Shown here piece by piece: positions 36,912 to 54,118 of a DNA stretch of 64,000 nucleotides (its first letter is position 1; every line of letters begins with the position of its first letter). The notes below the pieces were generated by a model. It was given only the letters and a program-made list of their open reading frames with translations, was not told the DNA's origin and ran no database searches. The position numbers and the translations under genes are program-made. Origin of the DNA: Opitutales bacterium (GTDB lineage: Bacteria; Verrucomicrobiota; Verrucomicrobiia; Opitutales; PNEW01); NCBI GenBank assembly GCA_965197745.1, contig CBDANS010000006.1, positions 1,056,001 to 1,120,000 of the forward strand, given 5' to 3'.

Positions 36912-39158
36912 TCACTCAATAGTGATCTCCTCGGGAACAACCTCGATCGCATCGCCATCTTCATTGGCGAAGGTCGCATTGACACTCTGTGTCGGCTGTG
37001 GAGTATTGTCGGACTTAAAATTGTTCTGCGTTATCAAGGTATCAAATCCCGTCGTTGTCGATCCGCTCTCTGCGACTACGACCGCGGCACCGTTTGTCTG
37101 CAATAAGTCTCCACCCGTGATCCGCAAGCCGGGGTTACCGGCTGCTGCGGTGAACGATCCTTCTCCAAACAAAAGATGCGGCACCGCATCGCCATTGGCA
37201 TCGATGTCACCTACCGTTAAGCGTACCGCGATTGGTACCCCGCGCGCGTCGACACCGATCTTGCCCGTGCTTGCGCTGAACGTGGCGTTCGACAACTGCA
37301 TGCCGCCCATGCCCGTGGAATTTACAACCTCCACCAGGGTCACGTCCGCTTGTGCGTCGTAGACTTGACCCTCGGGGAAGAGGGCTTGGTTCACCGCGTT
37401 TATTCTTCCCACCGTAAAGATACTGAAGAAGGTATTAGCATCGGCACCATCGATAACCACGCTCGGTTTGCCCGTCACGTACTCTACCGTCTGGTTATAG
37501 CGCGGAGGTATGGCCGGGGGCAGGAAAGTGGCCGGGTCCAGGGTTACGGTAAAGGTTCCTGCACCTGAGAACTCTACCTGTACAATGTCCTCGGTTTCGT
37601 CCATGAAGGAAACGCGGGTGATTTGGTTGGGTCGGGCTTGAAGCTGGATGGATTCTCCGGTTAGCAGGACCTGGTCAAAGACATTGCCATTCGGATGCTG
37701 AATATTCTCACCGGCGATATCGCCCGAGCCGTCGAGGATGAGGGGGACAGAAGGAGCTGCTATGGTGATGGCCGCAGTATCGCTGTCAGCGCTTCCTCCG
37801 GCGTTAGTTACCTGCACCCAGAAGTTTGTGCTCGTAGTGAGAGTGCCGGTGGTCAAGCTGCCGATAGTAGCGCCGACGACGGGACTCGATGTGTCACCGC
37901 TGTTGCCTGTAAACCATTGGTAAGTTAGATCGTCGCCGCTTGCGGTAACGGACAAACTCGCCGTTGCACCGGATGTGACTTCCTGGCTTGCCGGTTGGGT
38001 AGTGATAGCGGGAGCGGTGGCGGGCGGGGGTCCCTCAGAACCAGTTCCTGGTGCTCCTATCGGTGTATACCCAAAATCGTCGATCGCTGTATGACCTTCT
38101 GTATTGTTAGTAGGATGATCTCTCAATACAATCTTACCAATGCCTCCGGGGGCTCCTAATTCATCCGCATTAATATTTACTGAACCGGGCTTAGTAGTGG
38201 AAGTAACATCCGATTCTAAATTATCAATCGTAACGAGTAAGTTGTCGTTTGTATCATAGACGTCAATAAAGCCATCGGGTAAAATTCCCTCTTTGGGTGG
38301 TGTACTCTGTGATGCGAATGCGTCTATTTTATAAGCTGGAGTTTCAAAAGTGATGGTTGCTTCTTCACCATTTATCACTGCATAAGAAGTGGACATCGAG
38401 CGCACATGATTGGGACCATCAGTCCATGCAACGATAATAGCGCCTCCATCAAAAGTAGCAGTATTCGGCGAAATCCCAATGACCAAGGGTTCCAACAGTC
38501 CATCACCAGCGCCAAAAAATGTGAAATCCTCGTAAACAGTGTTGTTTGAGGGGAAGTCGGTCAGTGTGAATCCCAAGTCGTCGATCACGAGTTTTCCCAT
38601 AACATTAAAAAACTTCACTTCAATTATACCACTAAGGAAATCAAAATCTTCTGCATCAAAAAAATCACCGCTGTCTCCGACAAAACTGTATAAAGGGGGA
38701 TTAACTCCAGGGCTTATATTTGCTGGCAGCCCTTCGATGATGCCGCCATCTCCACCGCGAGAGCCCCCTATGACGATGTTAACTCTAATGTCAGTGGAGA
38801 AAACATCCCCTGTATTGATTTCTCCTCTTATCTCAAATTTGCCTGCGCCTGTCGTTTCACCCGCATAAAATTCTAGAAATTGCATCCCTCTTTGGGAGAA
38901 AATTTTTCCCTCCTGTCCAGGTCCAAGAGTTATTGCTTTGCAACCCGAATGTAAGAGCGAGGGATCCTCTAAAGTCTCCACCGTGAATCCGATCAAGGTA
39001 ACTACGTTTGGCTCCTGGCCAATGAAGATAGTCCCTTCCCCGCTGACGTTCTCGAAATTGATGAACACCTCCAGATCTTGAGGAAGGGCATAGAGACGGG
39101 ATGGTAAATAGAGCAAAAGAATCAGAATCTGAATTATTTTTATAGGGCTTCTTTTCAT
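36912..39158 (-). CDS. Secreted surface protein, family member 1 (variable N-domains + Ig-like + constant C-domain)
   Basis: Signal peptide ending LYA-LPQD; PAITTQPAS...LTYQW...FWVQVTN..G.ADS Ig-like domain; C-domain NIQHPNGNVFDQVLLTG...EEITIE. Confidence 0.85.
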   Translation of the reverse strand: MKRSPIKIIQILILLLYLPSRLYALPQDLEVFINFENVSGEGTIFIGQEPNVVTLIGFTVETLEDPSLLHSGCKAITLGPGQEGKIFSQRGMQFLEFYAGETTGAGKFEIRGEINTGDVFSTDIRVNIVIGGSRGGDGGIIEGLPANISPGVNPPLYSFVGDSGDFFDAEDFDFLSGIIEVKFFNVMGKLVIDDLGFTLTDFPSNNTVYEDFTFFGAGDGLLEPLVIGISPNTATFDGGAIIVAWTDGPNHVRSMSTSYAVINGEEATITFETPAYKIDAFASQSTPPKEGILPDGFIDVYDTNDNLLVTIDNLESDVTSTTKPGSVNINADELGAPGGIGKIVLRDHPTNNTEGHTAIDDFGYTPIGAPGTGSEGPPPATAPAITTQPASQEVTSGATASLSVTASGDDLTYQWFTGNSGDTSSPVVGATIGSLTTGTLTTSTNFWVQVTNAGGSADSDTAAITIAAPSVPLILDGSGDIAGENIQHPNGNVFDQVLLTGESIQLQARPNQITRVSFMDETEDIVQVEFSGAGTFTVTLDPATFLPPAIPPRYNQTVEYVTGKPSVVIDGADANTFFSIFTVGRINAVNQALFPEGQVYDAQADVTLVEVVNSTGMGGMQLSNATFSASTGKIGVDARGVPIAVRLTVGDIDANGDAVPHLLFGEGSFTAAAGNPGLRITGGDLLQTNGAAVVVAESGSTTTGFDTLITQNNFKSDNTPQPTQSVNATFANEDGDAIEVVPEEITIE

Positions 39159-39588
39159 GCTGTTATAACGATTAAATCGATGCCAGAGATGTGGCGGGGA
39201 ATTCCTTTGCCGGATTGGTTAGTTATCCAACCTAACCATTATTTGATTATATGCGAGGGCTATAGGAGATAATCGATCGGGGTGGCAACCTTGGATTACT
39301 TAATACACAATAGAAGGTCAAAAGGGGTCAGGCTTCGCATTTAACCATTTTAGAGATTAAAGTTTTAATAGACCGACGGGAAGAACGCTGACGCGATGCG
39401 TCTTCACTCGTGTTAAGTGTTAAGCAGAGAGTATAAATACAAATTAATTTAAGATTATTTTTCACCTAAAACCCATGGCACGCCATAGTGAAACGACGGC
39501 GGCTAATACTTAAAACCTAACACCACTACTGCATACTTAACACCACATCAAAAAATCGCTCCTGCAAATTCGTAGCGAGGGAAGCGAG

Positions 39589-39921
39589 CCCAGGCCGAAC
39601 GCAAAGCCGAGAAATGGCAGGCGAAGCACGGGAAGAAGAAGTGAACAGTCGCTGTCGTCCTCTTTCATGTCATTGCGAAGAGTAACACGACGCGGCTACC
39701 GAGTCCTGTAGCTGCAGGACGACATCTTACATTTCAGGGGGATGTCTGTTGTGTATTGCAGGTCCCTGGATGTTAAGATTTACTTTAAACTGGACGAAAG
39801 CCTTAATTGAAAAAACGAACCCTCATTGGAAAGATCTGAGCGGAAATTGATATTCGTAGGTACAATGACAATTTGCCTGGATTGCTTCGTCTCCCGCGAT
39901 TGCGGGTTTCTCGCAATGACA
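39589..39921 (+). repeat. Direct repeat copy 2, including complete MITE 39668-39921
   Basis: 11-bp TIR TGTCATTGCGA/TCGCAATGACA; internal KALIEKTNPHWKDLS remnant. Confidence 0.85.
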
Positions 39922-39993
39922 AAAAGGGAAGAGCGCTTATGCGCGTGTTTTGTGTTAAGTAAATTAACCTAAAACCTAACTCTGATATATAGA

Positions 39994-40017
39994 TCATTCA
40001 ATCGTTACCTCATCAAC
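39994..40017 (-). pseudogene. Second orphan 3' stub of the secreted protein family
   Basis: Translates VDEVTIE*; downstream flank (ctaaaacctaac...atagatca) resembles that of 56582. Confidence 0.6.
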
Positions 40018-40063
40018 CCCTTCAGATTCTACTGCCCACAGCTAACCATTCTCAATTGTGCCA

Positions 40064-41105
40064 TTACACGAAGCGAGGCATGACCTCTCTGGCGAATAGC
40101 CCCATCGAACGCATCACCTTCTCGTGCTCCATTCCTCCAAAGGCGAAGTTGCAGCCAAAGTATTCGATACCCTGATCGCGGAGTTCCTGGATTTTGGCGA
40201 TACAGGAATCGGGGTCGCCCAGGAACGCGCGGTTGTCATGGAGATAAGTCGTAGCTCACGGGTAACTCCGACCGCGCTTTGCGCCAGTCTTCGATGTTGT
40301 AGGGCACCTCGCTACTCTCGCTGAATGTGCCGCGATACTGCAAGATGTCCAGCACCCAATTCAGACGCTCCTCGGCGTCTTTCCGTACCTGTTCTGCTGT
40401 CTCGGCGACATAGAAATATCGGAAGAAGGGTATGTCGGACATGGGGATGTTCGATCCAGACTCCTCCGACATTTTCACAAATCGCCGGCACAGGTCCAGA
40501 GCAGCGGCCGTGTCCTGCACTACGGCGGCGCAAAGGGTGTAGCCCCGCGAGATGATATACTCCAGCGTCGCCCGGGTGCTGGTGGCTCCGACATAGATCG
40601 GCGGATGCGGCTTTTGCACCGGCGGGGGAACCAGGTTCAGCTTGTTGACACTGTAATAATTGCCCGAAAAAGAGAACTCCGTTGTCGTCCACAGGCCCTC
40701 GATTACTCTGATGCACTCCTGGAAACGCTCCTGGCTGTCCTCCGCGGCGATATTGAACCCGCCGTACTCGTAGCCCGTAAACCCGCGTCCGAAACCGACG
40801 TCGAGACGCCCTCCGCTGATGTGGTCGACAGTGGCGGTGTCCTCGGCCAGACGTATGGGGTTGTGCAGTGTGGGTACCAGGACGCCCGTGGCCAGACGTA
40901 TCGTTTTCGTTTTGGCCGCAGCAGCACTTGCCACGACCAGTGACGAAGATCCCATGCTGTAACGGGAGAAGTGGTGCTCGGCGAACCACGCGCTGTAGAA
41001 CCCGAGTTCCTCAGCGTACTGCACCTGCTCAAGTGTCTCGGCAAATATTCGCGAGGGGTCCGACTCTTCGGGCCAGGGCATATGAAAAAAGACGGCGAAT
41101 TTCAT
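40064..41105 (-). pseudogene. LLM-class flavin-dependent oxidoreductase, frameshifted
   Basis: AEELGF..AWFAEHHF, PIRLAED.AT.D.ISGGRL.VG.GRG; extra base near 40246, after which another frame continues YLHDNRAFLGDPD...LFAREVMPRFV*. Confidence 0.85.
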
Positions 41106-41113
41106 GTATTTAT

Positions 41114-41248
41114 TTATAGTCGAATTAAACCGATTATCCAGCTAACTGTGTTCTGGATTGGTGATGGCAGGGAGTTCCTCTTTCCTTCCATGAGGCGACT
41201 GAAACCCTCGACATCAGCGCTGAGTATGGCCGTTAGCTTGCGTTCCAT
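41114..41248 (-). pseudogene. N-terminal remnant of a class III adenylate/guanylate cyclase
   Basis: MERKLTAILSADVEGFSRLM with GGAG RBS, then unrelated sequence and stop after 44 aa. Confidence 0.7.
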
Positions 41249-41428
41249 GACTGATCGCTCCCTCTTAATGTTCCCTCTACACATTTAGAACAGATCAAAC
41301 TATTACTGACGTCCTCTTTGTGTCAATCAGACTGAGATAAGTCATAATTTCAATCGCTATATTTTTCGCTCCGCCATAAATTAAGCTTTTATAGGTACAT
41401 TTTAAGCAAATTCACCTACTTTTATAGA

Positions 41429-41505
41429 GCGCCGCTAGCTCAATTGGATAGAGCACCTGACTTCGGATCAGGATGTTGGGGGTTCGAGTCCCTCGCGGCG
41501 TGCCA
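41429..41505 (+). tRNA. tRNA-Arg (TCG)
   Basis: GCGCCGC acceptor, stem CCTGA/TCAGG with loop CTTCGGA, GGTTCGAGTCC, G-CCA end. Confidence 0.92.
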
Positions 41506-41621
41506 TTGATGAGACAATTGTCTTCCCTGGGCGGTGTGTGTTTTAGCTTCGCCGCGCCGTTACCTGAAATTTATTAAAAATTTGACTGAGAAAAATGATT
41601 AAGAGTGAACTATCCTCGGTC

Positions 41622-42707
41622 TTATGAGTCACGTCCAAGCCATTCACCTATTTCTTTCTCAAAACAATGGGATTCAGCATAGGTAACACTGATGTTTTTA
41701 ATAAACTCAGTGGCTTCATCGGTAAAAAGGCCTATATCAATCAGCCACTGCACAGACTCTTGCACAGCTTGCAATGAGCTGTAACGCGGTTGATAATCGA
41801 TCAATCGTTGAGCTTTCGCAATGCTGCAATTAGGGCTGTGTGCAATAAGATCGCGGCTTGTTCGTGCCTCATTATAAGAAACCGTTTTTTTCCACTCTTC
41901 CCACGGGAGGAAACTGAGTTTAGCGGGTTGCCCAAACCAAGAGGCCATCGACTCAGCATACCCGCGATATGTCAGCGCGGATGGCGATACAACGTGGAAA
42001 CTTTCACCTACCGCATTGCTCCAATTTGCCAATGCCTTCATGAATGCCTGTGCTACATCGTCAGCATGGACATGATGGCAGGTTTCCAAGCCAAAATTCG
42101 GAAGCGTCACATTTTCTCCTCGGGCCAGCTTGTCAAAAACCTGCGCGTTGAAGTTTCCGAGTGGATTTACAGGGGCATACCCAGGCCCTACAATGTGACC
42201 GGGATGCAACACGGTTGCGGGAAAACCGAACTGTCTGGCTTCCGCGAGGAGGTAAGACTCGATCGCCGCTTTATTGATGCCATAACCTGATTTTTCACGT
42301 TCTTCGATGGTGCCATCCCTGATATTGCCAAAAGGATTACGTGGTTGCGTTTCCTCGGTCGGCACGCTGACACTGTGTCCATGCACCCAGATCGAGCCAC
42401 AATGTAGAAAATGTTGAACATGGCCTCGTAACGCTTCTACCAGGTGACGGGCGCTTTCTGGAGTGAAACAAATCATGTCAATGACCGCGTCACCATTAAG
42501 TTCACGAATCTGCTGCCCAAAGGTCCCTTGCTCTTCAGCATGGAAGCGATCAATCTGGACCTGCTGAACTGCGTCCCACATAGCGTTTGACTGGTAGGGC
42601 GAACGTTCCTGACGACTGACTGAAACCACTTCATGACCCGCTTCGATCAGACGTGGCACGAGATAGGTTCCCGCATGGCCTGTTCCGCCAATTATTACTA
42701 CTTTCAT
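41622..42707 (-). CDS. NAD-dependent epimerase/dehydratase family protein
   Basis: MKVVIIGGTGHAG, YGINK (YxxxK), HVHADDVA; start placed at ATG 42707. Confidence 0.88.
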   Translation of the reverse strand: MKVVIIGGTGHAGTYLVPRLIEAGHEVVSVSRQERSPYQSNAMWDAVQQVQIDRFHAEEQGTFGQQIRELNGDAVIDMICFTPESARHLVEALRGHVQHFLHCGSIWVHGHSVSVPTEETQPRNPFGNIRDGTIEEREKSGYGINKAAIESYLLAEARQFGFPATVLHPGHIVGPGYAPVNPLGNFNAQVFDKLARGENVTLPNFGLETCHHVHADDVAQAFMKALANWSNAVGESFHVVSPSALTYRGYAESMASWFGQPAKLSFLPWEEWKKTVSYNEARTSRDLIAHSPNCSIAKAQRLIDYQPRYSSLQAVQESVQWLIDIGLFTDEATEFIKNISVTYAESHCFEKEIGEWLGRDS

Positions 42708-42876
42708 AGAGATAATGAAATATGTTGCTCTACATCTTTCCAAGTAAAAACAGAAGTAAGCAGCCAACGAAACGAAAATTGACTCATAGTATTCTACTAC
42801 CCTATGGTGAAGAATACTTTGAATTTGATCTCTTTTTCTAATCAAACAACACCAAGTCCGAGGAAGTTATATAAAA

Positions 42877-43317
42877 ATGGCGAAAAATGTTCCTCTCATC
42901 AGTTCTGGAGCATCGGGCCCTCTCGGGGTCCTACATCTTCCGCGTTTATGGTTAAAAACTTCGCTCGATGCCACAGGTCAGTTGCCAGACGATTATCGGG
43001 CGGGTGTTGGCGGCTTCGATACTATGGTCCTGGTCGGGCTTGGTCTAGATAAGGACGAGTTCCTAGCGTATATTAAAGATAGCAAACCAACATACTGCCA
43101 ATTGGAAAAATGGATCCTCGAAAAAAAAGGAGGCTCTCTTGATGCTGCTGCAGTCAAAGAATTAAATAACGTGATCAGCGGCTATGTCTTTCCTGACGAA
43201 ACGCGCGCATCCATCTGCAGTGATTCAGGTATTCCTGATGACGGAAGTATTAAGGATATCATCAGTTTAAATAATCTCGATGACTGGTATTCCTTTCACA
43301 AGGCTATGCTAAGCTAA
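42877..43317 (+). CDS. DUF5069-like protein
   Basis: PLISSG..GPLGVLHLPRLWLK, FD.MVL.GLGL, LNNLDDW..FH. Confidence 0.7.
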   Translation: MAKNVPLISSGASGPLGVLHLPRLWLKTSLDATGQLPDDYRAGVGGFDTMVLVGLGLDKDEFLAYIKDSKPTYCQLEKWILEKKGGSLDAAAVKELNNVISGYVFPDETRASICSDSGIPDDGSIKDIISLNNLDDWYSFHKAMLS

Positions 43318-43565
43318 AAAGAGCAAAGAGAAGAGCGTGCATCTGAGAAACCTCAGGCAAATATTTAGACCCTAGACGGGGGGTGTAAAGCTTCGGCGCA
43401 ACCGTTGCCATATATATTCATTAGCGTGTGAACGGGTGGTAGAAAACCTAAAAATATCGGGCCATCTATGAAATTTACTTACCCTTCAATGCTGAAGCCC
43501 AAACTTTTCTCTTGGCTAAGGAGAGAACTTATCGATGCTCTTTTTATTATTTTAGTAACTGAATT

Positions 43566-44567
43566 ATGGCCGCAGCTAAAAAAAAGATTCTCGTCGTTGG
43601 CACGGGTACAATAGGTGAATGTCATACGCGTTGCATACTAGCGACAAATCGCGCAGAAGTTTCAATTTGTGAAACCAATGATAATCAGCGAAAAAAAATA
43701 GCAAATAATTATAAAATCAAAAATAGCTATGCCGATTTTACATTGGCCCTCGAAGCAGGACATGACGCTGTTGTGATCGCAACACCTGCGCACCTGCATA
43801 TTCCCATGGCGCAACAAGCAGCAGAGTCTGGTCACCATCTATTGATCGAAAAACCATTATCTGTAAGTTTAGAGGGGATTGATCATCTCGATAGAACTAT
43901 CAGGGAGCGAAAGCTCATTGCTGGAGTCGCTTATGTCTTACGCCACATCCCTATACTTTCAGCAATGAAGAAAGCCCTCGACAGTGGACGCTTTGGACGC
44001 CCCTTGCATATTTCTGTAGTCAGGGGCTGGCACTTCCCCACCTCCCGACCCAATTACAAAGATATTTATTACGCCAGTCATGCTATGGGAGGAGGCGCTA
44101 TTCAGGATGGTTTAACACATCTTATCAATACCGTAAGCTGGCTCGCTGGACCGGTCGAACGCCTGGTTGCCGACTGCGCGCATCAAGTTTTGGAAGGAGT
44201 TGAAGTCGAAGACACAGTCAACGTCTTAACCCGGCATGGCGACACGCTCGCTTCCATCAGCATGAATCAATATCAAGCCCCTGATGAAGGAGTGATCACC
44301 GTGGTCTGTGAATGCGGCACGTTGCGAGCTGAAATTCATTGTAATCGCATGCGCTGGATGATGGAACCTGAAACTGAGTGGGAGGAAGAGACCTGGCCAG
44401 ATTTTGAGCGCGAACATGCGTTTATATCCCAGGCGAACATTTTTTTTGACGCTATCGACGGCAAGAGTGAAATGCCCTGTAACTTATCCGAAGCGCGCCA
44501 TACCCTGGAGTGTAATCTTGCTATCCTGGAGGCAGCTCGCAATCCTTCCAATTGGGAAATATTATGA
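43566..44567 (+). CDS. Gfo/Idh/MocA family oxidoreductase
   Basis: VVGTGTIG, IATPAHLH, IEKPL, GGGAI.D..TH. Confidence 0.92.
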   Translation: MAAAKKKILVVGTGTIGECHTRCILATNRAEVSICETNDNQRKKIANNYKIKNSYADFTLALEAGHDAVVIATPAHLHIPMAQQAAESGHHLLIEKPLSVSLEGIDHLDRTIRERKLIAGVAYVLRHIPILSAMKKALDSGRFGRPLHISVVRGWHFPTSRPNYKDIYYASHAMGGGAIQDGLTHLINTVSWLAGPVERLVADCAHQVLEGVEVEDTVNVLTRHGDTLASISMNQYQAPDEGVITVVCECGTLRAEIHCNRMRWMMEPETEWEEETWPDFEREHAFISQANIFFDAIDGKSEMPCNLSEARHTLECNLAILEAARNPSNWEIL

Positions 44568-44890
44568 CCGACCCTTTTCTTATTCCCACTGAGATCGCAG
44601 AGTATTCGAATTAAAGAAGAATAAACCACGAATAATCACGAATATAAAATACGAAAAGTATAGGAATTAAAAACATAAGAAAAATAGCAAACATTACAGT
44701 GTTTCACCTGATCTCTATCTTATTTCCTATTCTATTTTCTGCGGACACTGCGTCTCTGCGGTGAAACATTCTTTTTCTGAGTTCATGAGTTCTAAATTGT
44801 CATTTTGTGTCTCTTGCTTGCCGGCCATGAAATGCCGAGAAGGGTCAGGCTGTGCTACGGTGTATTGTTGGGCGGGAACGACAACATCGT

Positions 44891-45805: not shown

Positions 45806-46615
45806 CTAACCCGTAATTCTCTTTAAACGCATTACTTGTCGCGCATGATCGGAGAGACTGTCCCAGAGTTCGCGGGGTATCGTATCTTCCATAGGCGCAA
45901 TCGGTTTCCCGCTATAAAACCAGGGACGGCTGAAATGCATGATGAGATCATCGCGCGGTTGATCGGAGACGTTGGGCGTTCCGCGGTGGAAAAGACGGAG
46001 ATCGAAGACCCAAATGGATCCGCGTTTCACGTTGAGTCGGAGAGGGTAGTAGTTGCCTGTTCGATTCGGGCCCTCGCCAAGAACGTGATCGAACCACTTC
46101 CCTCTTTTTCCATCAATCGATGAATAACAAACCTCCTTATCCGCGATATAATGACTGCCAGGGAGCACTTCAATACTGCCATTCTCTTCCGTAGAACTGA
46201 CAAGGGGAATACGGAGCGCCACCCTGATCGTCGGGGTCATCATTCCTGGGAAGAGAGGTTCCAGATCGCGATGCCACCGCTGATAGACGGCGCCGGGAAA
46301 CGGCGTAAGCGAACTGTAATCCTGGAAGATATAATCTTCCCCGAGAACACTTTCAAAAAGTTTAACGAGGGCGGGATGATCAAAAATCTCCGGGTCGACA
46401 AAGGGGAGCACAAGGGGTATGTCGATAGCGTAACGGTCCGGGCCACGGTTGGGATTGTCCCCCTGCCTTTCAATTTCCCGGTCCCGGATCGGCAACCATG
46501 CCTCGTAGATCCGACCGAGAATGTCAGTGGGTATAAAGTCTTCAATGACGATAAACCCGTTAATCTTAAATTCTTCAATCAGTTGGTCGGTATCTATCTC
46601 TGTCGCTAAGCTCAT
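45806..46615 (-). CDS. PhyH-family dioxygenase
   Basis: QRWHRD, ENGSIEVLPGSH, FDLRLFHRGTPN.S..PR. Confidence 0.88.
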   Translation of the reverse strand: MSLATEIDTDQLIEEFKINGFIVIEDFIPTDILGRIYEAWLPIRDREIERQGDNPNRGPDRYAIDIPLVLPFVDPEIFDHPALVKLFESVLGEDYIFQDYSSLTPFPGAVYQRWHRDLEPLFPGMMTPTIRVALRIPLVSSTEENGSIEVLPGSHYIADKEVCYSSIDGKRGKWFDHVLGEGPNRTGNYYPLRLNVKRGSIWVFDLRLFHRGTPNVSDQPRDDLIMHFSRPWFYSGKPIAPMEDTIPRELWDSLSDHARQVMRLKRITG

Positions 46616-46744
46616 GACAGGTAAGACAAGAGGTCAAAAAGTCAGAAAGTCAAAAGGTCAAAATGTGGAAGACGCGATCGCGGAATATAAGAATTACTAT
46701 TTAATAAATGGTGGAACGCGCTGTCCCTAGCGCGTTGTGAACTG

Positions 46745-47539
46745 TTAAATTTTCGCACCCAGTGCGGCAAGATTTTCAACCATACCTCGAATACGCGGTC
46801 GTTTACTATTGAGAAAATTCTCATGGGGTTGAAAAACTTTACTCCTGGCGTAGAAAATTGATGATGTATTATAAAGGGCATTGAGGTCACGATCGTTTGT
46901 TGGGTGTGCCGCAAACTTCAAGGCAATGATGCGGCGACCTTCCCAGCCACCGAAGACACTATGAAAGAGGCATTGATTAAATAAAACAACGTCACCCGGA
47001 TCTGACTCCAGAGGATAACAGGGTAGATCTTCTCCCGGTGCACCAAATGGCATCGATTGAGGATCCATTTCCTGGGCTCCCAGTTCCTGATGAAAAGGCA
47101 TCTGATGTGAACCCGGAATAATGCGCAGGCATCCGGTATTTTTCGTGACCGGGTCGAGATAGAGCATAATTTTCAGGCGGCAATAACTTACATCTTCTTC
47201 TTCCTCTTTTCGCCAGCATTTACGGTCCGAATGCCATTTATGGACTGCTCTTTTCGTAACATTCCCTTCAGACCCAAACCAGATAAATTCTGGTCCCAGC
47301 AATTGTTCAGCGAGTTGAAATATTCGGTCATCATCCACCAGTTCGGTTAATACGGGACTCGTCTCAACGAAATAATTCATGTGTATACCATCATCACCTA
47401 CAGCCTCATTGCGACGATACTTCTCCCATAGTTTTTCTGCTTCGCGTGTGATCTTTTCCATTTCCTGTGAGGAGAAAACCTGCCGCATAAAAAGAAAACC
47501 AAAGGTTTCAAAGTGTGCTATCTGTTCTGGAGTCAACAT
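46745..47539 (-). CDS. PhyH-family dioxygenase
   Basis: WHSD, LRIIPGSH, LFHS; close paralog of 62385-63173. Confidence 0.88.
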   Translation of the reverse strand: MLTPEQIAHFETFGFLFMRQVFSSQEMEKITREAEKLWEKYRRNEAVGDDGIHMNYFVETSPVLTELVDDDRIFQLAEQLLGPEFIWFGSEGNVTKRAVHKWHSDRKCWRKEEEEDVSYCRLKIMLYLDPVTKNTGCLRIIPGSHQMPFHQELGAQEMDPQSMPFGAPGEDLPCYPLESDPGDVVLFNQCLFHSVFGGWEGRRIIALKFAAHPTNDRDLNALYNTSSIFYARSKVFQPHENFLNSKRPRIRGMVENLAALGAKI

Positions 47540-47883
47540 GATGAAAAATTTATGAATTTTTCAGTGTCAGGTGTTAAGTTTTAAGGACGCACAAAATCAG
47601 GGTCAAACGTAGAATATAAATATACTCGGTAAGCAGGGCCCGGCAGTCGATTGATTCATGATGCATGCTGCAGGATACCGGATGCGCGATGCAGTATTCA
47701 GGATGTCATGGGGTAGGGGGTCGGATTGCAGAATGTGAATTTATTTTTATTGTCATTGCGAGGAGCAACGCGACGTGGCAATCCAGGCGAATGAATGTAC
47801 GCAACCGACATTCCCCTGGATCGCCACGGCTGACAAGCAGCCTCGCGATGACAAGGTATTTCAATCGAAAATCGGCAATCGTA
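47474..47883. repeat. Duplicated segment copy A (phyH 5' end, heptamer array, MITE 47751-47853)
   Basis: Similar to 51421-51892; MITE TIR TGTCATTGCGAGG/CCTCGCGATGACA. Confidence 0.85.
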
Positions 47884-50091
47884 TCATTCTATCGTTAACT
47901 CTTCAACGGCAACCTCGATCGCATCTCCGTCCTCGTTGGCGAAGGTTGCATCGATACTCAGCGTCGGCTGAGGCGTTTCGTCGGACTTGAAGTTGTTCTG
48001 AGTGATCAGGGTCTCAAACCCCGGTGTCGTCGATCCACTCTCTGCCACGACGATCGAAGCGTCATTTGTCTGCACCAGGTCTCCTCCCGTGATGCGCAAC
48101 CCGGGGTTGCCCGCCGGTACCGTGAAGGAACCTTCTCCGAACAGGAGATGGGGCACCGCGTCACCATCGGCGTCGATGTCACCCACCGTTAAACGTACCG
48201 CGATCGGCACACCGCGCGCATGGAAGCCCACCTTGCCCGTGCTTCCACTGAACACGGCATTCGATAACTGTACCCCTCCCAGTCCCGTGGAGTTGACTAC
48301 TTCCACGAGGGCTACGTCTGCCTGGGCATCATAGACCTGTCCTTCGGGGAAAAGGGCCTGATTAAAGGCGTTGATCCTGCCCACGGTAAAGATACTGAAG
48401 AAGGTATTGGCGTCCGCTCCATCGATGACCACGCTCGGTTTGCCCGTCACGTACTCCACGGCCTGGTTGTAGCGTGGAGGGATGGCCGGGGGGAGAAAGG
48501 TGGCTGGATCGAGGGTTACGGTAAAGGTGCCATTACCTGAAAATTCTACCTGCACGATGTCCTCGTTTTCATCCATGAAGGAGACGCGTGTAATCTGTCC
48601 CGGCTTAGCCTGGAGTTGGACGGACTCCCCGGTGAGTAAAATCTGATCGAAGACATTGCCGTTGGCATGCTGGATGTTTTCACCGGCGATATCTCCCGAG
48701 CCGTCGAGGACGAGGGGCACTGAGGGCGCTGCCACAGTGATGACCGCGGTATCGCTGTCAGCACTACCTCCGGCGTTTGTAACCTGTGCCCAGTAGTTTG
48801 TGCTCGTGGTGAGCGCCCCGGTAGTTAGCGTGCCGCCTGTGGCTCCGACAACGGGGTTGGCGGTGTCACCACTGTTGCCGGTATACCACTGGTTAGTGAG
48901 ATCATCGCCGCTGGCGGCAACCGATAGAACGACAGCTGTACCGGACTGCACTTCCTGGCTCGCGGGTTGGGTGGTAATGGAGGGACCTGTTGCGGGGGGC
49001 GGTTCACCGCCGCCGTCGAAACCGGGGGTTCCAATAGGGGTAAAACCGAAGTCGGCGATACCCGTTAGGCTGAACGATGGATTTACATTTTCTTTATCGC
49101 TTAAAGTAATTTTGGCAATGCCGCCCACGGCTCCCAATTCACTGGCAACCAATTTATAATTAAGAGGAAGGGATTCTTCTCGAATGTCCGCCGGGAAATC
49201 TTCGAGCGTAGTGAGTAAGTTATCTACCGTGTCAAATACCTCAATAGTACCGTCACTTTGGCCTAGTGTTGCTGTGTTCTGTGTTGCGGTGGCATAAAAT
49301 TGAACCCGCGCTGCCGGGGTTTCGAAAGTGATCGTTGAGGTTTCACCATTTAACACTCTCCAGAGGTTGCATGTTCGGCGTTGATTTCCCAATTCACCTG
49401 CTCTTACAAAGCCATCAGTAAACGTGGCGGCAAAAGGAGATGATCCAACCGTAATTTCTTGTTCTGCTTCGTTGAATTCACAAAATGTGGTATACACGGT
49501 ATTATTCCTTGGCTCATCTGAAAGGGTAAAACCAAGATCATCGACGACTAATTTTCCCGTGACATTAAAGAACTTAATTTCAGCTATACCATCATAATAG
49601 GCGAAGAAACCTAATTCCCGAAAATCATCTCTCACCGCGACGAATCGTTGCACAGAAGGATTGCTATCAGGGTTGATACTGGTCGGTAAGCCAGTTACTA
49701 CATACTGCGGTAATAAGGATATTAAATTAACATCTTCATTTTGGATTAATTGGAAACCTCGGGCTTCGAACTTACCCGCGCCCGTGTTTTCGGCCACGTA
49801 GAATTCGATTTCATCAATCCCCCTTTCATAGACGATCTTCCCTTCCTGACCAGGCCCGAGGGTTATCGCTTTTGTTCCGGAGTGTAAGAGCGCCGGATCT
49901 TCCAGCGTTTCCACCGTGAATCCGACTATCTTGATTCTGTTGGGTTCTTCCCCAATGAAAAATTCACCTTCCCCGCTGATGTCCTCAAAATCGGTGAACA
50001 CCTCCAGATCTTGAGGCAGGGCCGACAGGCGCACCGGTATATAGAGAAAAAGAATCAGAAGCGGAATTATTTTTATAGGTTGTCTTTCCAT
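47884..50091 (-). CDS. Secreted surface protein, family member 2
   Basis: Same architecture as 36912-39158 with diverged N-terminal loops. Confidence 0.85.
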   Translation of the reverse strand: MERQPIKIIPLLILFLYIPVRLSALPQDLEVFTDFEDISGEGEFFIGEEPNRIKIVGFTVETLEDPALLHSGTKAITLGPGQEGKIVYERGIDEIEFYVAENTGAGKFEARGFQLIQNEDVNLISLLPQYVVTGLPTSINPDSNPSVQRFVAVRDDFRELGFFAYYDGIAEIKFFNVTGKLVVDDLGFTLSDEPRNNTVYTTFCEFNEAEQEITVGSSPFAATFTDGFVRAGELGNQRRTCNLWRVLNGETSTITFETPAARVQFYATATQNTATLGQSDGTIEVFDTVDNLLTTLEDFPADIREESLPLNYKLVASELGAVGGIAKITLSDKENVNPSFSLTGIADFGFTPIGTPGFDGGGEPPPATGPSITTQPASQEVQSGTAVVLSVAASGDDLTNQWYTGNSGDTANPVVGATGGTLTTGALTTSTNYWAQVTNAGGSADSDTAVITVAAPSVPLVLDGSGDIAGENIQHANGNVFDQILLTGESVQLQAKPGQITRVSFMDENEDIVQVEFSGNGTFTVTLDPATFLPPAIPPRYNQAVEYVTGKPSVVIDGADANTFFSIFTVGRINAFNQALFPEGQVYDAQADVALVEVVNSTGLGGVQLSNAVFSGSTGKVGFHARGVPIAVRLTVGDIDADGDAVPHLLFGEGSFTVPAGNPGLRITGGDLVQTNDASIVVAESGSTTPGFETLITQNNFKSDETPQPTLSIDATFANEDGDAIEVAVEELTIE

Positions 50092-50239
50092 CCTGTTATG
50101 TTGATAGAGTGATGCCAGAAATGTGACAAGGAAATTACTTTTTTTCGGGTACGGTAGCCTCTAGTTTAATTATAAATTGGTAACAGGCGAGGGCTATAGG
50201 CGGATTTATAAAATGCCGTATAAATTAATTAAGGGCAAT

Positions 50240-51403
50240 TTATACGTTAACGGCTGCGGATACATCCACCACATAAACCTGCCGCGTCCCCTCGTGAATC
50301 GAATCAAAGCAAACCTGCGTTTCATTCCGACTCCAGCGGGGATGCAGATCACAGCGGATTTCGCCCCTAAATGGCGGAGGAGCTGGAAAACGCCCCAGAA
50401 CGACCCGGCGCTCTTCGAGCATGTGCCACAGCAATAAGGTTTGGCGATTCTCTTTGTCCGGGGATTCATCCGTCAGAAGCCAGGTACCATCTCGGGTGAA
50501 GCTACAGTGGCCATTTTTGGTCAGGATATCAGGTCGAACCATCTGATATTCGCCACTGCTGTCGTTGATCAAGTAATAGTGGTATCCCTCCGGCATCATG
50601 ACCCAGCCAAAAAGAATCTCTGAGGTCTGCCAGTCGAAGTGGGAGGCACACAAGTCTGTCACCACGCGCAGATCGCCGCCCTCCAGGCTGGCTGACATGA
50701 GGATGGTGTGCTTGATCTCAATCCCTGGCTCATTCCAGCGCACGACAAAGGCAACCCGAGTGTCGTCTCGATTGATAACGGTGTGATTGAACCATAATTT
50801 ATGGCTCTGGACTTCAGGATTGTCACTGAAGAAGGCCCGCACCTCTTCATATGAGACCAGGACTTTGGTCTGGCCGGTTTCTGTATCCATCAGATAAATC
50901 CCATCGTCGGTGGGGTGGTTCTGATCGGCAAAGGGGTCAGGCAATCCGGCGTAACCGACCACCGGGCGCAGCGACTTGAGTCGGGCATAGTTGAGGCCCA
51001 GTGCCCGGTGGCCATCACGGCTCAGCGCACTGATGGGATAGGGAAGAATGCGTTTCTCCCCCGAATGAATGTCAAGTACCACGCTGACAAACCGATCATC
51101 CTGCAGGGCATTATAGGTGATCAGGCGGTCCGGTGCGGTGGGCAGCCAATGTAACATACAGCCTTGTTGCAAATTCCAGGCCTGGGTTTCCGCCAGCGGT
51201 TCGAATTTGCCCGAAGCCAGTTCTACCAAACCAACCACAACCGTGTCCCCTGCGCCCGGTGGCCGGTCGTGGAAATCCGACTCCAAACAGAGGACGTACT
51301 GGCCTGTGGCATCCCAAGGACAGATACCATAGTAGCCAAAGAAGTGGTGTTTTGGACCTTGGGTGATTGCTTTGGCGACGAAGTGCTGTTCTGTTGTGTT
51401 CAT
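50240..51403 (-). CDS. TolB-like/oligogalacturonate-lyase-like beta-propeller protein
   Basis: HHFFGYY...PWD, AWN.QQG.ML.W, GHCSF..DG, RCDLHPRWS, FDSIHEG.RQ.Y. Confidence 0.7.
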   Translation of the reverse strand: MNTTEQHFVAKAITQGPKHHFFGYYGICPWDATGQYVLCLESDFHDRPPGAGDTVVVGLVELASGKFEPLAETQAWNLQQGCMLHWLPTAPDRLITYNALQDDRFVSVVLDIHSGEKRILPYPISALSRDGHRALGLNYARLKSLRPVVGYAGLPDPFADQNHPTDDGIYLMDTETGQTKVLVSYEEVRAFFSDNPEVQSHKLWFNHTVINRDDTRVAFVVRWNEPGIEIKHTILMSASLEGGDLRVVTDLCASHFDWQTSEILFGWVMMPEGYHYYLINDSSGEYQMVRPDILTKNGHCSFTRDGTWLLTDESPDKENRQTLLLWHMLEERRVVLGRFPAPPPFRGEIRCDLHPRWSRNETQVCFDSIHEGTRQVYVVDVSAAVNV

Positions 51404-51420
51404 GTTGCCCCTTGAGTATG

Positions 51421-51486
51421 GAAAATCTGCCGTAATTAAAGAAAACCAAAGGTTTCAAAGTGTGCTATTTGTTCTGGAGTCAACAT
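51421..51486 (-). pseudogene. 5' remnant of a phyH paralog
   Basis: MLTPEQIAHFETFGFL* nearly identical in DNA to the start of 46745-47539. Confidence 0.8.
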
Positions 51487-51892
51487 GATGAAATATTTAT
51501 GAGTTTTTCAGTGTCAGGTGTTAGGTTTAAAGGACGCACAAAATCAGGGTCAAACGTAGAATTTAAATATACTTGGTAGCGGGGCCCGGCAGTCGATTGA
51601 TTCATGATGCATGCTGCAGGATACCGGATGCGCGATGCAGTATTCAGAATGTAAGGTGTCGGGGTTTGAAGAATTTAGTATGCCAGATTGCAGAATGTGG
51701 ATTTATTTTATTGTAATTGCGAGGGAGGCGAAGCCGACTGCGGCAATCCAGGGGAATGCCGGTAACGTATTGACATTCCCCTGGATCGCCACGGCTGACA
51801 AGCAACCTCCAGCCGTCGCCGAGGCTATGGCCGACAGGCGCGATGACAAGGTATTTCAATCGTCAATCTAAATTCGGAAATCCGCAATCGCA
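51421..51892. repeat. Duplicated segment copy B (MITE 51712-51848 with nested short palindrome)
   Basis: Similar to 47474-47883; extra CAGCCGTCGCCGAGGCTATGGCCGACAG at ~51809-51837. Confidence 0.85.
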
Positions 51893-54118
51893 TCACTCTA
51901 TCGTAATCTCTTCGGTCGTCACCGCAATGTCATCACCATCTTCATTGGCGAAAGTGGCGTCGATACTCAGGGTCGGCTGAGGTGTTTCGTCGGACTTGAA
52001 GTTGTTCTGGGTGATCAGGGTCTCAAACCCGGTCGTGGTTGAACCACTCTCCGCGACCACGACCGCGGCGCCATTCGTTTGCAAGAGGTCGCCTCCGGTG
52101 ATCCGCATCCCGGGGTTGCCGGCCGGTACTGTGAAGGATCCTTCTCCGAACAGGAGGTGCGGCACCGCGTCACCATCGGCGTCGATGTCGCCTACTGTCA
52201 AGCGTACCGCGATCGGCACGCCCCGTGCATCGAAGCCCACCTTGCCCGTGCTTCCACTGAACACGGCATTCGATAATTGCACCCCTCCAAGGCCTGTGGA
52301 GTTAACAACTTCCACGAGGGCTACGTCGGCCTGGGCGTCATAGACCTGTCCTTCGGGGAACAGGGCTTTGTTAAAGGCGTTGATCCTTCCCACGGTGAAG
52401 ATGCTGAAGAAGGTATTGGCATCCGCTCCGTCGATGACTACGCTCGGCTTGCCCGTCACGTACTCAACGGCCTGGTTGTAGCGTGGAGGGATGGCTGGGG
52501 CTAGGAAGGTAGCCGGGTCCAGGGTTACGGTAAAGGTGCCATTACCTGAAAATTCTACCTGCACAATGTCTTCGTTTTCGTCCATGAAGGAAACGCGGGT
52601 GATCTGTCCCGGCTTGGCCTGGAGTTGGACAGACTCCCCGGTGAGTAAAATCTGGTCGAAGACATTACCGTTGGCATGCTGGATGTTTTCCCCGGCGATA
52701 TCTCCCGAGCCGTCAAGGACGAGGGGAACCGAAGGTGCTGCTACCGTGACGACAGCGGTTTCGCTGTCAGCTGTACCTCCCGCGTTTGTAATCTGCACCC
52801 AGTAGCTCGTGCTCGCAGTTAGAGCACTCGTTGTTAAAGTACTGCCGGTAGCCCCGGCGACGGGGTTGGCGGTATCACCGCTGTTGCCAGTGTACCACTG
52901 GTAAGTAAGATCGTCACCACTGGCGGCAACGGACAAACTAGCCGATGCGCCGGACGCGACTTCCTGGCTTGCCGGCTGGGTAGAAATAGAAGGAGCGGTA
53001 GCGGGGGGCGGACCCTCGGAGCCGGTGCCCGGGGCGCCGATCGGGGTAAACCCAAAATCGTCGACTGTGGTACGACTGAAAGCAGGATTGAGATTGGGAT
53101 CATCCATCATCACCAGCCTGCTGATGCCACCCGGGGCTCCTAATTCATCCGCATTAATAGTTATAAAATTGGGTTTGAACTCAGGTCTAACATTTCCTTC
53201 TAAATCTCTAAAGGTTGCCAGTAAGTTATCGTTCGTATCATAGACTTCAATTGAGCCGTCGGGATCGGTGGTTCCAGCAGACACTGTGGTAGCTCCGAAA
53301 AAATCTATTTCATAGGCTGGAGTTTCAAAGGTGATGCTTGCCTCCCCTCCATTAAATAATCCATAAGCATTAAAAAACGAGCGTACATAAACGAGATTAC
53401 CTGCAACCCTGTTTATAATCATTCCTCCCTCAAAGGTAACAGTATTGGGCGAAGTACCCAGGACCAAGGGTTCTGATCCTCCTTCACCAGTACTAAATTC
53501 TTCAAAAGTGCTGAAAAAAGTGTTGTTTGACGGTAATTCGGTCAGGGTAAATCCCAGGTCATCGAGGACGAGTTTTCCCGTAACATTAAGAAACTTTACT
53601 TCGAGGATACCGCTGAGGAAATCAAAATCATCTGTATCTTGAAAAAACCCGCTGTCTCCGACAAAACTGTATAAAGGGGGATTGGCTCCAGGGCTGATAT
53701 TTGCTGGCAATCCTTCGATAAGACCTCCATCGCCAATGACGAAATTACTTTTAGTGTCAACTGAGAGGTCTGGTATGACTTCTCCTCTTACCTCCATTCT
53801 ACCTGCGCCCGTGTTCTCGCCCGCATAAAATTCCAGAAATTGTATACCTCTTGAGGAGATGATCTTTCCCTCCTGACCAGGTCCGAGGGTTAAAGCCTTA
53901 GTTCCCGAGTGTAAGAGCGCAGGATCCTCTAATGTTTCCACCGTGAAACCGACCAGGGTAACAACGTTTGGCTCCTGACCAATGAAGATAGTCCCTTCCC
54001 CGTTGATGTCCTCGAAATCAGTGAACACCTCCAGATCTTGTGGAAGGGCATAGAGACGTGCCGGTAAATAGAGAAAGAGAACCAGAAGCGGAATTGTTTT
54101 TATGAGCGGTTTTTTCAT
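51893..54118 (-). CDS. Secreted surface protein, family member 3
   Basis: Same architecture; N-domains closest to member 1, much of the C-domain closest to member 2. Confidence 0.85.
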   Translation of the reverse strand: MKKPLIKTIPLLVLFLYLPARLYALPQDLEVFTDFEDINGEGTIFIGQEPNVVTLVGFTVETLEDPALLHSGTKALTLGPGQEGKIISSRGIQFLEFYAGENTGAGRMEVRGEVIPDLSVDTKSNFVIGDGGLIEGLPANISPGANPPLYSFVGDSGFFQDTDDFDFLSGILEVKFLNVTGKLVLDDLGFTLTELPSNNTFFSTFEEFSTGEGGSEPLVLGTSPNTVTFEGGMIINRVAGNLVYVRSFFNAYGLFNGGEASITFETPAYEIDFFGATTVSAGTTDPDGSIEVYDTNDNLLATFRDLEGNVRPEFKPNFITINADELGAPGGISRLVMMDDPNLNPAFSRTTVDDFGFTPIGAPGTGSEGPPPATAPSISTQPASQEVASGASASLSVAASGDDLTYQWYTGNSGDTANPVAGATGSTLTTSALTASTSYWVQITNAGGTADSETAVVTVAAPSVPLVLDGSGDIAGENIQHANGNVFDQILLTGESVQLQAKPGQITRVSFMDENEDIVQVEFSGNGTFTVTLDPATFLAPAIPPRYNQAVEYVTGKPSVVIDGADANTFFSIFTVGRINAFNKALFPEGQVYDAQADVALVEVVNSTGLGGVQLSNAVFSGSTGKVGFDARGVPIAVRLTVGDIDADGDAVPHLLFGEGSFTVPAGNPGMRITGGDLLQTNGAAVVVAESGSTTTGFETLITQNNFKSDETPQPTLSIDATFANEDGDDIAVTTEEITIE

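Follow-up and report, generated by a model that had tools for sequence, protein, structure and literature searches.

A large family of putative binding proteins with loop-variable heads and a shared tail in an Opitutales bacterium

Results

Architecture of the three genes

We analyzed a 64,000-nucleotide stretch of DNA from an Opitutales bacterium (the window), which carries three co-oriented paralogous genes for modular proteins that combine a two-domain head, a hinge, an immunoglobulin-like (Ig) domain, and a long C-terminal tail. The window corresponds to C6:1056001-1120000 of a 4.45-Mb genome assembly (7 contigs, 92% complete). The original prediction, made from the sequence alone, described three paralogs of 748, 735, and 741 aa with this architecture behind a signal peptide, and the open reading frames (ORFs), their alignment, and Pfam all agree with it. 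The genes, named members 1, 2, and 3, and the parts of member 3, which serves as the reference, lie at the following positions.

36912-39158, minus strand: member 1 (P0001, 748 aa), same architecture as member 3
47884-50091, minus strand: member 2 (P0002, 735 aa), same architecture as member 3
51893-54118, minus strand: member 3 (P0003, 741 aa)
54044-54118, minus strand: signal peptide of member 3
53519-54043, minus strand: head domain N1 of member 3
53015-53518, minus strand: head domain N2 of member 3
52994-53014, minus strand: Pro-rich hinge of member 3
52721-52993, minus strand: Ig_7 domain of member 3
51896-52720, minus strand: constant tail of member 3

The three members can be aligned end to end over 751 columns. 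Identity to member 1 is 68% for member 2 and 76% for member 3, and the first ~370 residues hold nearly all of the differences. The leader of each protein is rich in K/R, then hydrophobic, and ends, as read from the alignment, in A followed by LPQDLE. N1 closes with DDLGFT at about residue 195 and N2 with (D/A)DFG(F/Y)T at about residue 362. The hinge that follows reads GPPPATxP, and the framework blocks quoted in the original prediction are present in the three-way alignment with variable stretches between them. The only Pfam domain is Ig_7 (PF19081, residues ~371-466, E 1e-8 to 1e-11), for which all three members score 33.2-45.1 bits against a gathering cut-off of 27.3. The last ~275 residues are almost wholly identical and terminate in E-E-[IL]-T-I-E. 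An NCBIfam scan of the three members gave nothing meaningful, and a search of PDB sequences matched only Ig-like phage decoration proteins (E 0.005). A protein language-model atlas returned unnamed clusters, the nearest named one being the DUF4465 B12-binding cluster (0.83).

Copy number in the genome and passengers of the tail

The large paralog repertoire that the original prediction proposed to look for is present. A tblastn search with member 3 gave 124 matches in the genome, and 6,523 ORFs of at least 90 aa were called and searched with the four parts of member 3, giving the following counts.

N1-N2-Ig-C: 43 ORFs (41 of at least 700 aa)
N1-N2-C, without Ig: 7 ORFs
Part-head fragments (split or truncated genes, some with in-frame stops): 16 ORFs
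Tail behind an unrelated N-terminal part: 30 ORFs
Ig-C: 7 ORFs
Any ORF with the tail: 93 ORFs

The two truncated N1-N2-Ig-C ORFs were excluded from later alignments. The 41 full-length copies are complete ORFs, each with its own start codon and leader, spread over four contigs, and 36 of the 66 head-bearing ORFs have another head-bearing ORF within 10 kb. About 10 broken family copies look like ordinary pseudogenes.

The tail is not restricted to the head-bearing proteins. A Pfam scan of 35 tail-bearing and related proteins identified FG-GAP_2, Trypsin_2/PPC/CARDB, RCC1, LRR, CAP, Polysacc_lyase, PQQ propeller, cyclophilin, and CBM96 domains among its passengers. The tails of 47 copies are 60-98% identical to that of P0003, and 63 ORFs of the genome end in TIE. 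Separately, five paralogs of ~625-635 aa carry a related Ig_7 at residues ~145-225 with neither head nor tail, and the rest of each has no Pfam match (C4:142052-143923, C6:104109-106004, C6:750427-752331, C6:761803-763689, and C7:2082617-2084515).

Variation is concentrated in loops of the head

Conserved framework blocks separated by segments that are hypervariable in both sequence and length, as first noticed in the three members, are also evident in the per-column entropy of the 41 full-length copies, from which all entropies and loop lengths below are taken. The five odd-numbered loops of N2 and a single hairpin loop of N1 stand out, with the following positions in member 3.

53075-53509, minus strand: whole span of the five odd N2 loops
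53468-53509, minus strand: N2 loop L1-2, entropy 2.32 bits, length 11-24
53372-53410, minus strand: N2 loop L3-4, entropy 2.81 bits, length 7-32
53258-53287, minus strand: N2 loop L5-6, entropy 2.34 bits, length 5-13
53165-53209, minus strand: N2 loop L7-8, entropy 2.25 bits, length 15-23
53075-53101, minus strand: N2 loop L9-10, entropy 2.51 bits, length 8-13
53747-53776, minus strand: N1 hairpin loop L6-7 (residues 115-124), the sole hypervariable loop of N1, entropy 2.83 bits, length 1-14

The even N2 loops L2-3, L6-7, and L8-9 have entropies of 0.31-0.76 and a fixed length. The Ig_7 domain, with an entropy of 0.3-1.0, belongs to the constant part rather than to the variable part. The tail shows 0.06-0.5 per ten-residue block, rising to 0.98 in the last full block, and its final residues vary. 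Since the strands span the sandwich and successive loops alternate between its ends, the five odd N2 loops should share one end of the predicted model; residues 202-213 of N2 were counted as one strand there, the homologous N1 strand being continuous.

Predicted folds of head and tail

The AlphaFold2 model of the head, built from a 69-row alignment, has a predicted local distance difference test (pLDDT) score of 89.7 and a predicted template modeling score of 0.85, and contains two all-beta domains of ten strands each. The best Foldseek matches of the head are tandem CBM22 carbohydrate-binding modules (CBMs; 4xup of Xyn10C, E 3e-9), CBM51, and reelin repeats. In VIA-align, which is independent of Foldseek, N2 matches the pectate-lyase CBM 8x8h (Z 10.6, root-mean-square deviation 2.8, 129 aligned), the porphyran CBM 8xmz (Z 9.7), and DUF4465/BtuJ (Z 9.4), and N1 matches CBM61 (2xom, Z 9.5) and CBM22 (Z 8.7). 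Identity to CBMs within these structural alignments is 9-15%. By model comparison, both N1 and N2 adopt the beta-jelly-roll/beta-sandwich fold of CBMs; these scores speak to the predicted fold class of the head and not to its function. The original prediction had named a match of the N-domains to a known enzyme family as evidence against it. No enzyme family (Pfam/NCBIfam) and no standout enzyme fold was found for the head, which appears CBM- or lectin-like.

The tail model, built from a 51-row alignment that includes divergent copies, has a pLDDT of 95.7. Its VIA-align matches reach at best Z 6.7 and are mostly right-handed beta-helix proteins (lyases, tailspikes, and pertactin), and Pfam at E <= 1 returned nothing but a chance-level row (0.13) in one member. 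An autotransporter barrel was considered and rejected: no barrel occurs among the 50 listed matches, no autotransporter Pfam family matched, and the last residue is Glu, whereas such barrels, of ~250-300 aa, end in an aromatic residue.

The head is related to single-domain PEP-CTERM proteins

A profile of the head searched over 1.84 billion representatives matched only 222 clusters, 27 of them at E <= 1e-30 and mostly fragments of the family itself. Beyond these top clusters lie proteins that align to N2 alone, many of them 180-210 aa long. Each of the eight single-domain proteins printed (P0169, P0177, P0178, P0182, P0184, P0191, P0193, and P0196, from Acidobacteriota and other phyla) has a leader, a mature start xPQDxxVFxDFE, one beta domain closing with IDDFGFT, and a PEP-CTERM-like end. 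Pfam PEP-CTERM models matched 5 of 45 scanned N2-matching relatives at E <= 0.001; the TIGR02595 cut-off was passed by 8 of 30 scanned, and that of VPLPA-CTERM by one. Further N2-matching relatives are fusions with GSDH propeller, RCC1, PKD, or Ig domains. The domain of the single-domain relatives has no Pfam or NCBIfam model of its own, with only sub-threshold matches to floc_PepA and NF038129. Profile comparison by hhalign relates N1 to N2 (probability 98.7%, E 3e-16) and both to a set of 35 single-domain proteins (N1 99.5%, N2 99.9%).

The head is thus a PEP-CTERM-type cargo domain duplicated in tandem, and the hinge, Ig_7, and the 275-aa tail have taken over the position of the PEP-CTERM tail. 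The combination of a C-terminal PEP motif, a transmembrane helix, and a basic cluster is absent from the three members, which end in a 275-aa soluble beta domain. The genome encodes two exosortases and at least five PEP-CTERM proteins, recognized by a regular expression for the tail, none of which belongs to the family. Because the tail takes the place of the PEP-CTERM tail and serves many unrelated passengers, it may act as a sorting or tethering module.

Distribution among genomes

Among public relatives, the full architecture was found only in a chromosome labeled 'MAG: Opitutales bacterium' (OY829953.1, at least 30 loci) and in 'Verrucomicrobia bacterium Opi.OSU.00C'; other taxa in the same search matched the Ig domain only, and a word-index search returned 513 unnamed proteins with PF19081 alone. 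The head profile matched 4 of 61 Opitutales genomes searched, all four in one family, and each of three genomes keeps more than 40 intact copies. Among the same 61, the tail profile matched those four genomes and two of a second Opitutales family with 1-5 matches each. In this second family the low-copy tail domain lies in open frames of 958-1774 aa (genome G028, C2:661103-661915, 1878386-1879195, and 1670502-1671188), which suggests that the tail domain predates the expansion.

Opi.OSU.00C is a free-living sub-micron plankton cell of the Sargasso Sea; its genome encodes carbohydrate catabolism and is described as adapted to the carbohydrates of eukaryotic phytoplankton (PMC6003095). The studied genome and OY829953 are separated by a genus-level split, with 89% nucleotide identity in atpD (11% different) and syntenic flanks that are 4-19% different. 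One stretch of 5,255 nt that spans a family gene and the flank downstream of it is 99.35% identical between OY829953.1 and C4:24558-29812 of the studied genome, against 81-96% for other syntenic DNA; the lineages could have exchanged it recently, or the stretch could be mis-binned or chimeric.

The family gene was also present in contigs of sequencing runs labeled with three coded organisms from three studies. In the contigs of four runs, the only clustered head differences among those listed lie at 53270-53281, within loop L5-6, and the tail has a summed depth ~30-40 times higher than its flanks, a figure that does not represent copy number. No RNA run occurs among the 22 runs listed. A full-text literature search found no paper describing the family, which is not proof that none exists.

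Selection on loops, framework, and tail

Rates of nonsynonymous (dN) and synonymous (dS) substitution were estimated with Nei-Gojobori counts (own script) for 70 sequences, 41 from the studied genome and 29 full-length genes from OY829953, with loop columns of the head counted apart from framework columns. When all pairs are considered, synonymous sites of the head have reached saturation (median proportion of synonymous differences, pS, 0.74-0.76). Between copies the tail has a dS of ~1.0 and a dN/dS of 0.064, so its protein identity is due to purifying selection; recent homogenization by gene conversion is ruled out as the cause. The framework (0.05-0.27) and Ig plus tail (0.04-0.11) are similarly constrained.

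The loops behave differently in young and old pairs. Six within-genome nearest pairs with a head pS of 0.19-0.30 have a loop dN/dS of 0.63-1.01, and 3 of 32 within-genome nearest-neighbor pairs reach 1.01-1.18. Codons affected by insertions or deletions (indels) are concentrated in loops versus framework (for example 7 vs 0, 15 vs 0, and 12 vs 4). Some copies, such as C7_1497412 and C7_1469702, are distinguished from each other mostly by their loops. Among 16 reciprocal-best pairs between the two genomes, loop dN/dS is 0.04-0.15 in six, 0.29-0.85 in nine, and undefined in one. Positive selection on the loops, an expectation of the original prediction, was not borne out, as no pooled loop dN/dS lies clearly above 1 (maximum 1.18). 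Its picture of a diversifying repertoire holds in that the repertoire is large and recombining. The conservation of loops in 6 of 16 cross-genome pairs argues for a repertoire that is inherited and largely stable, and not continuously diversifying.

Recombination and base composition

The proposed mosaic nature of member 3 is borne out in windows of 40 codons. Its head is closer to member 1 (0.59-0.84) than to member 2 (0.43-0.73), and its tail is closer to member 2 (0.85-0.92) than to member 1 (0.77-0.84), with the best-matching copy of the tail switching in nearly every window. Elsewhere, pairs with near-identical heads have tails that differ at a dS of 0.4-1.3 (for example head 0.004 vs tail 0.40, and 0.037 vs 0.82). 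At the syntenic locus of member 3 in OY829953, the gene is 83% identical and the flanks are 93-96% identical.

Maximum-likelihood trees are discordant between the head and Ig plus tail (log-likelihood differences of 6324 and 965), between the two halves of the tail (781 and 312), and between N1 and N2 (151 and 241). Controls made from interleaved codons gave differences of 55-136. Because these controls also 'reject', the p-values of the approximately unbiased test cannot be taken at face value, and only the 2- to 100-fold excess over the controls counts. The best single breakpoints in the 26 closest pairs, which are not mutually independent, fall at residues 23-27 (9 pairs), 333-400 (6), and 577-628 (9); in one pair the nucleotide difference jumps from 0.2% to 22% at residue 581. 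The pairwise homoplasy index test (own implementation, 500 permutations) gave a weak result, with 222/500 for N1, 88/500 for N2, 18/500 for Ig, and 3/500 and 31/500 for the first and second halves of the tail. We attribute this to saturated synonymous sites and hence rely on tree discordance and the interleaved-codon controls. With mosaics, discordant trees, and breakpoints at module boundaries, the shuffling by recombination suggested in the original prediction is well supported.

The AT-rich character of the variable part relative to the constant part, noted in the same prediction, is confirmed by both total GC content and GC content at third codon positions (GC3). In 500-nt windows the heads have a GC content of 0.45-0.47 and the tails 0.56-0.61, and GC3 is 0.435 in N1, 0.392 in N2, 0.638 in Ig, and 0.656 in the tail, compared with 0.465 in other long ORFs of the genome. 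The compositional break is thus located at synonymous sites. Tail GC3 exceeds passenger GC3 in 18 of 21 other tail-bearing proteins, and the same jump occurs in OY829953 (0.42 vs 0.64). In a set of 82 tails, GC3 increases with the mean identity of a tail to the remaining copies, from 0.41 in the most divergent to 0.67 in the core (Spearman 0.83, with an overstated p-value because the copies are related). A low-GC single-cell relative has no such jump (0.317 vs 0.316; n = 2 and 5 only). The high tail GC3 is best read as the result of GC-biased gene conversion in a recombining pool, and a high-GC3 subclade maintained by codon selection may be an alternative.

Repeats, flanks, and neighboring genes

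The orphan tails and repeats reported in the original prediction are present in the window, together with further traces of duplication.

34859-34951, minus strand: orphan remnant of the last ~19-42 tail residues
36458-36767: 311-nt direct repeat, copy 1, 93.6% identical to copy 2
39589-39892: 311-nt direct repeat, copy 2
36880-36900, minus strand: three [AG]GTKTTA heptamers just 3' of the member 1 stop, followed by a long hairpin
39504-39524, minus strand, and 47563-47583, plus strand: further heptamer arrays
47474-47844: flank downstream of member 2, which shares ~390 nt at 85.7% identity with the corresponding flank of member 3 (51421-51809)
56582-59572, minus strand: LRR, RCC1-repeat, and tail gene, broken into three ORFs (57914-59572, 57079-57834, 56582-57064), with a frameshift at ~57090 inside its tail

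The downstream flank of member 3 ends in a remnant of the start of a PhyH gene (51418-51486, matching 63104-63173); this remnant and the shared flank are the trace of a segmental duplication of a family gene plus a PhyH gene. The pair of 311-nt repeats brackets member 1 and its flanks, as if marking a repeat-bounded cassette or a deleted neighbor. The heptamer arrays are part of an intergenic element that consists of TATCGATC, then 3-5 heptamers, and then a long GC-rich hairpin (GGTGGAGCGGGCTGTCCCTAGC...). Heptamer or CTATCGAT words occur within 200 nt 3' of the stop in 20 of 41 family genes. A strict regular expression finds 42 heptamer arrays genome-wide, 24 of them within 60 nt after a same-strand ORF stop, and 12 of these 24 after a tail-bearing ORF. 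The upstream regions of family genes are mostly unrelated and have no common motif; ~60 nt is common only to a subgroup of six that includes the three window members.

The neighbors in the window include PhyH dioxygenases, GFO/IDH/MocA oxidoreductases, a methyltransferase, LanC-like and Sel1 proteins, a luciferase-like oxygenase, an epimerase, and an IS3 element. The IS3-family transposase (32111-33353) has two overlapping frames (HTH + rve, and rve_3), and transposase ORFs of the same length and Pfam profile adjoin family genes elsewhere (loci L135, L138, and L142). At least five PhyH-type dioxygenases lie within 18 kb (45806-46615, 46745-47539, 55537-56352, 59774-60646, and 62385-63173), and an ORF that runs off the window end (63460-63999) is a possible sixth. 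The segment 46865-47539 is 80.6% identical to 62486-63173, and PhyH is another expanded family interleaved with the studied one. A 387-aa ORF between members 2 and 3 (50240-51403) has no Pfam match at E <= 1e-5.

A Pfam scan of 127 ORFs flanking the 41 genes identified PhyH (12), transposase/integrase (8), SSF (6), FG-GAP_3 (6), SBP_bac_5 (5), GFO_IDH_MocA (5), AP_endonuc_2 (4), sulfatase (3), and BNR (3), as well as GH31, arabinofuranosidase, and DUF2961. Three proteins of ~880-900 aa, each adjoining a family gene in C4 or C7, fuse an N-terminal NanM/Kelch propeller to a sodium:solute symporter (L134:8563-11259, L152:14665-17298, and L162:4-2670). FG-GAP_3 proteins of ~940-970 aa adjoin family genes at five loci (L136:9745-12567, L150:1032-3947, L156:5088-7961, L158:5704-8559, and L139:14764-17577) and could be a partner or another expanded family.

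Discussion

A germline-encoded repertoire of putative binding proteins

We consider it probable that these genes form a lineage-specific family of Sec-exported modular proteins, in which a putative binding head is carried on a shared stalk and tail and the repertoire is encoded in the germline. The heads are probably glycan- or surface-binding proteins. Each head would be a tandem-duplicated beta-jelly-roll that occurs outside the family as a single copy in ~190-aa PEP-CTERM proteins, and the loop end of N2 would form the ligand-binding site, with glycans or other surface polymers as the most likely ligands. The Pro-rich hinge and the invariant Ig_7 domain may serve as a spacer, and the 275-aa beta-helix-like tail, which ~50 other exoproteins carry as well, most likely serves all of them for sorting or tethering. 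The repertoire would grow by duplication, after which the loops would diverge fast by substitutions and indels and would then be held by purifying selection. Homologous recombination would reshuffle the modules, with breakpoints at the junction of signal peptide and head, in the hinge, and inside the tail.

Several observations weigh against this explanation. The CBM matches at Z 9-10.6 are only modestly above the background of 7-8 stated for VIA-align, no Pfam or NCBIfam CBM family matched any of the three members at E <= 1, and the same fold occurs in B12 binding (DUF4465), MAM domains, toxin receptor-binding domains, and protein-protein contacts. The alternation of variable and constant loops is not clean, because the even N2 loop L4-5 also varies (entropy 2.04, length 3-12), and the placement of the odd loops on one face derives from the DSSP strand order of the predicted model rather than from coordinates. 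Loop columns were defined on the same paralog alignment that supplied the within-genome dN/dS, so that these values are inflated and the cross-genome ones are less affected. The tail has no recognizable relative among solved structures (none by Foldseek at E <= 0.001), and the retention of exosortases and PEP-CTERM proteins implies that it is not a substitute for a lost system. The counts of sulfatase, BNR, GH31, and NanM-SSF neighbors come without a background sample, and no enrichment is claimed. The data establish the architecture, copy number, folds, homology, pattern of variation, recombination, and selection regimes; ligand binding, the glycan nature of the ligands, the cell location, the shared face of the loops, anchoring by the tail, and GC-biased conversion as the source of the high GC3 are what we infer.

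The leading rival, which we regard as rather unlikely, is that the heads are adhesins or recognition proteins for host or partner cells, with protein ligands and loops that would fit surface proteins of the host or prey. Eukaryote-like surface proteins (LRR, Sel1, RCC1, and Ig) are common in symbiont genomes, the tail is also found on LRR, RCC1, FG-GAP, and CAP proteins, and Sel1-repeat genes lie nearby. Furthermore, structural matches of the jelly rolls include MAM, reelin, and gingipain adhesin domains, and the gene's occurrence in runs labeled with three coded organisms would fit such a role. However, a genome with a free-living planktonic single cell as its public relative has the family too (at least 16 head matches), and the top structural matches of the head are carbohydrate-binding modules.

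A variable coat, in which the heads would be exposed epitopes or phage receptors and the cell would escape phages, grazers, or host immunity by switching the expressed copy, seems improbable. It would account for the loop-restricted variation, the indels, the frequent recombination, the pseudogenes, and the swapping of signal-peptide and 5' regions between copies. The layout of the family argues against it: the 41 ORFs are complete, with their own starts and leaders on four contigs, there is no expression site fed by silent cassettes, and the upstream regions are mostly unrelated. On the same layout, an antigenic-variation cassette system was rejected. In addition, purifying selection has maintained the loops of 6 of 16 cross-genome pairs over the genus-level split, and no indel or joint variants of the head were seen in the contigs of four runs from three studies, a weak test because contigs can hide rare variants. 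The 92%-complete assembly contains no reverse transcriptase (RVT_1), which counts against the coat and also led us to reject the target of a diversity-generating retroelement, as did variation in six separate loops that includes indels, whereas such targets vary by adenine-directed substitutions, free of indels, in a single C-terminal region (the template repeat was not searched for). The dedicated diversification machinery implied by the antibody analogy of the original prediction therefore did not hold up: there is no reverse transcriptase and no cassette layout, and the copies are complete inherited genes.

It is comparably improbable that the heads bind nothing or serve another purpose, for example as envelope or S-layer-like subunits or in capturing small molecules or cofactors as DUF4465/BtuJ does, with loops under relaxed constraint; DUF4465 is among the best structural matches (Z 9.3-9.4) and the nearest named atlas cluster, and the loop dN/dS close to 1 of young pairs is as compatible with relaxation as with adaptation, but relaxed loops would not sit at 0.04-0.15 in older pairs, and the intact copies kept in three genomes argue for distinct, selected functions.

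A bolder version of the binding-protein explanation can be put forward only tentatively. The family may be a germline 'binding-protein library' of ~50 receptors on a jelly-roll scaffold with five loops at one end, resembling the complementarity-determining regions (CDRs) of antibodies. These receptors would be mounted on the cell by one constant tail that also serves ~50 other exoproteins, and module exchange would leave a signature of GC-biased conversion confined to the tail pool. If so, bacteria would possess an equivalent of a fixed innate receptor repertoire, and the tail would define a surface-display system that has not been described before.

Together, the family and the tail account for about 4% of the 4.45-Mb genome (estimated from ~100 loci of roughly 2 kb). 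Both are found in all sampled members of a single marine Opitutales family, yet neither head nor tail has a Pfam or NCBIfam model. If the heads bind glycans or surfaces, they would provide a natural library of related scaffolds with different loop sets, which would help to map how uncultured polysaccharide-degrading Verrucomicrobia recognize substrates or hosts and might serve as a scaffold for protein engineering. In a diderm phylum, the tail points to a sorting or tethering route that seems not to have been described. The kinship of the head with PEP-CTERM cargo offers a concrete comparison for the 'choice of anchor', and the GC3 pattern allows bacterial GC-biased gene conversion to be studied cleanly within one genome.

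Comparison with known systems

The closest relatives of the head, the single-domain PEP-CTERM proteins, share with the family a homologous domain, secretion, a mature N-terminus of the form A-x-P-[QE]-D-x-[DE]-V-F-x-D-F-E, and the closing motif I-D-D-F-G-[FY]-T. They differ in having one domain with a PEP-CTERM or VPLPA-CTERM tail right after DDFGFT, whereas the studied proteins have two domains followed by the hinge, Ig_7, and the 275-aa tail. We know of no reported expansion to 40-60 copies, and of no reported loop hypervariability, in the single-domain proteins. CBMs (4xup, 8x8h, 8xmz, and 2xom) resemble the head in the fold of each domain and in tandem arrangement, but the family has no CBM-family sequence match and no attached catalytic domain. 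In type C CBMs, the binding site is formed by loops at one end of the sandwich.

The cargo of the type IX secretion system (T9SS) of Bacteroidota offers a similar overall plan, namely a variable passenger, Ig_7 (PF19081, 'CHU_C associated'), and a conserved C-terminal module common to many secreted proteins. T9SS C-terminal domains are roughly 80-100 aa long and the system is not known outside Bacteroidota, whereas the studied tail is 275 aa long and beta-helix-like and its host is a verrucomicrobium. No T9SS C-terminal domain family occurs among the Pfam matches of the three members at E <= 1. The bacterial antigenic-variation families vls, pilE/pilS, and msp2 are likewise multigene families with recombination between copies and variation confined to exposed segments. 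Unlike them, the studied family lacks a single expression locus fed by promoterless partial cassettes, and its loops are stable in 6 of 16 pairs.

With antibodies, finally, the family shares a beta-sandwich framework, several hypervariable loops probably at one end, a hinge to constant domains, and many variants per genome. The label 'antibody-like' thus fits the anatomy but not the biology: variation resides in a predicted jelly roll instead of an Ig V domain, the Ig domain lies in the constant region, and each variant is an inherited gene, in some cases conserved from one genus to another.

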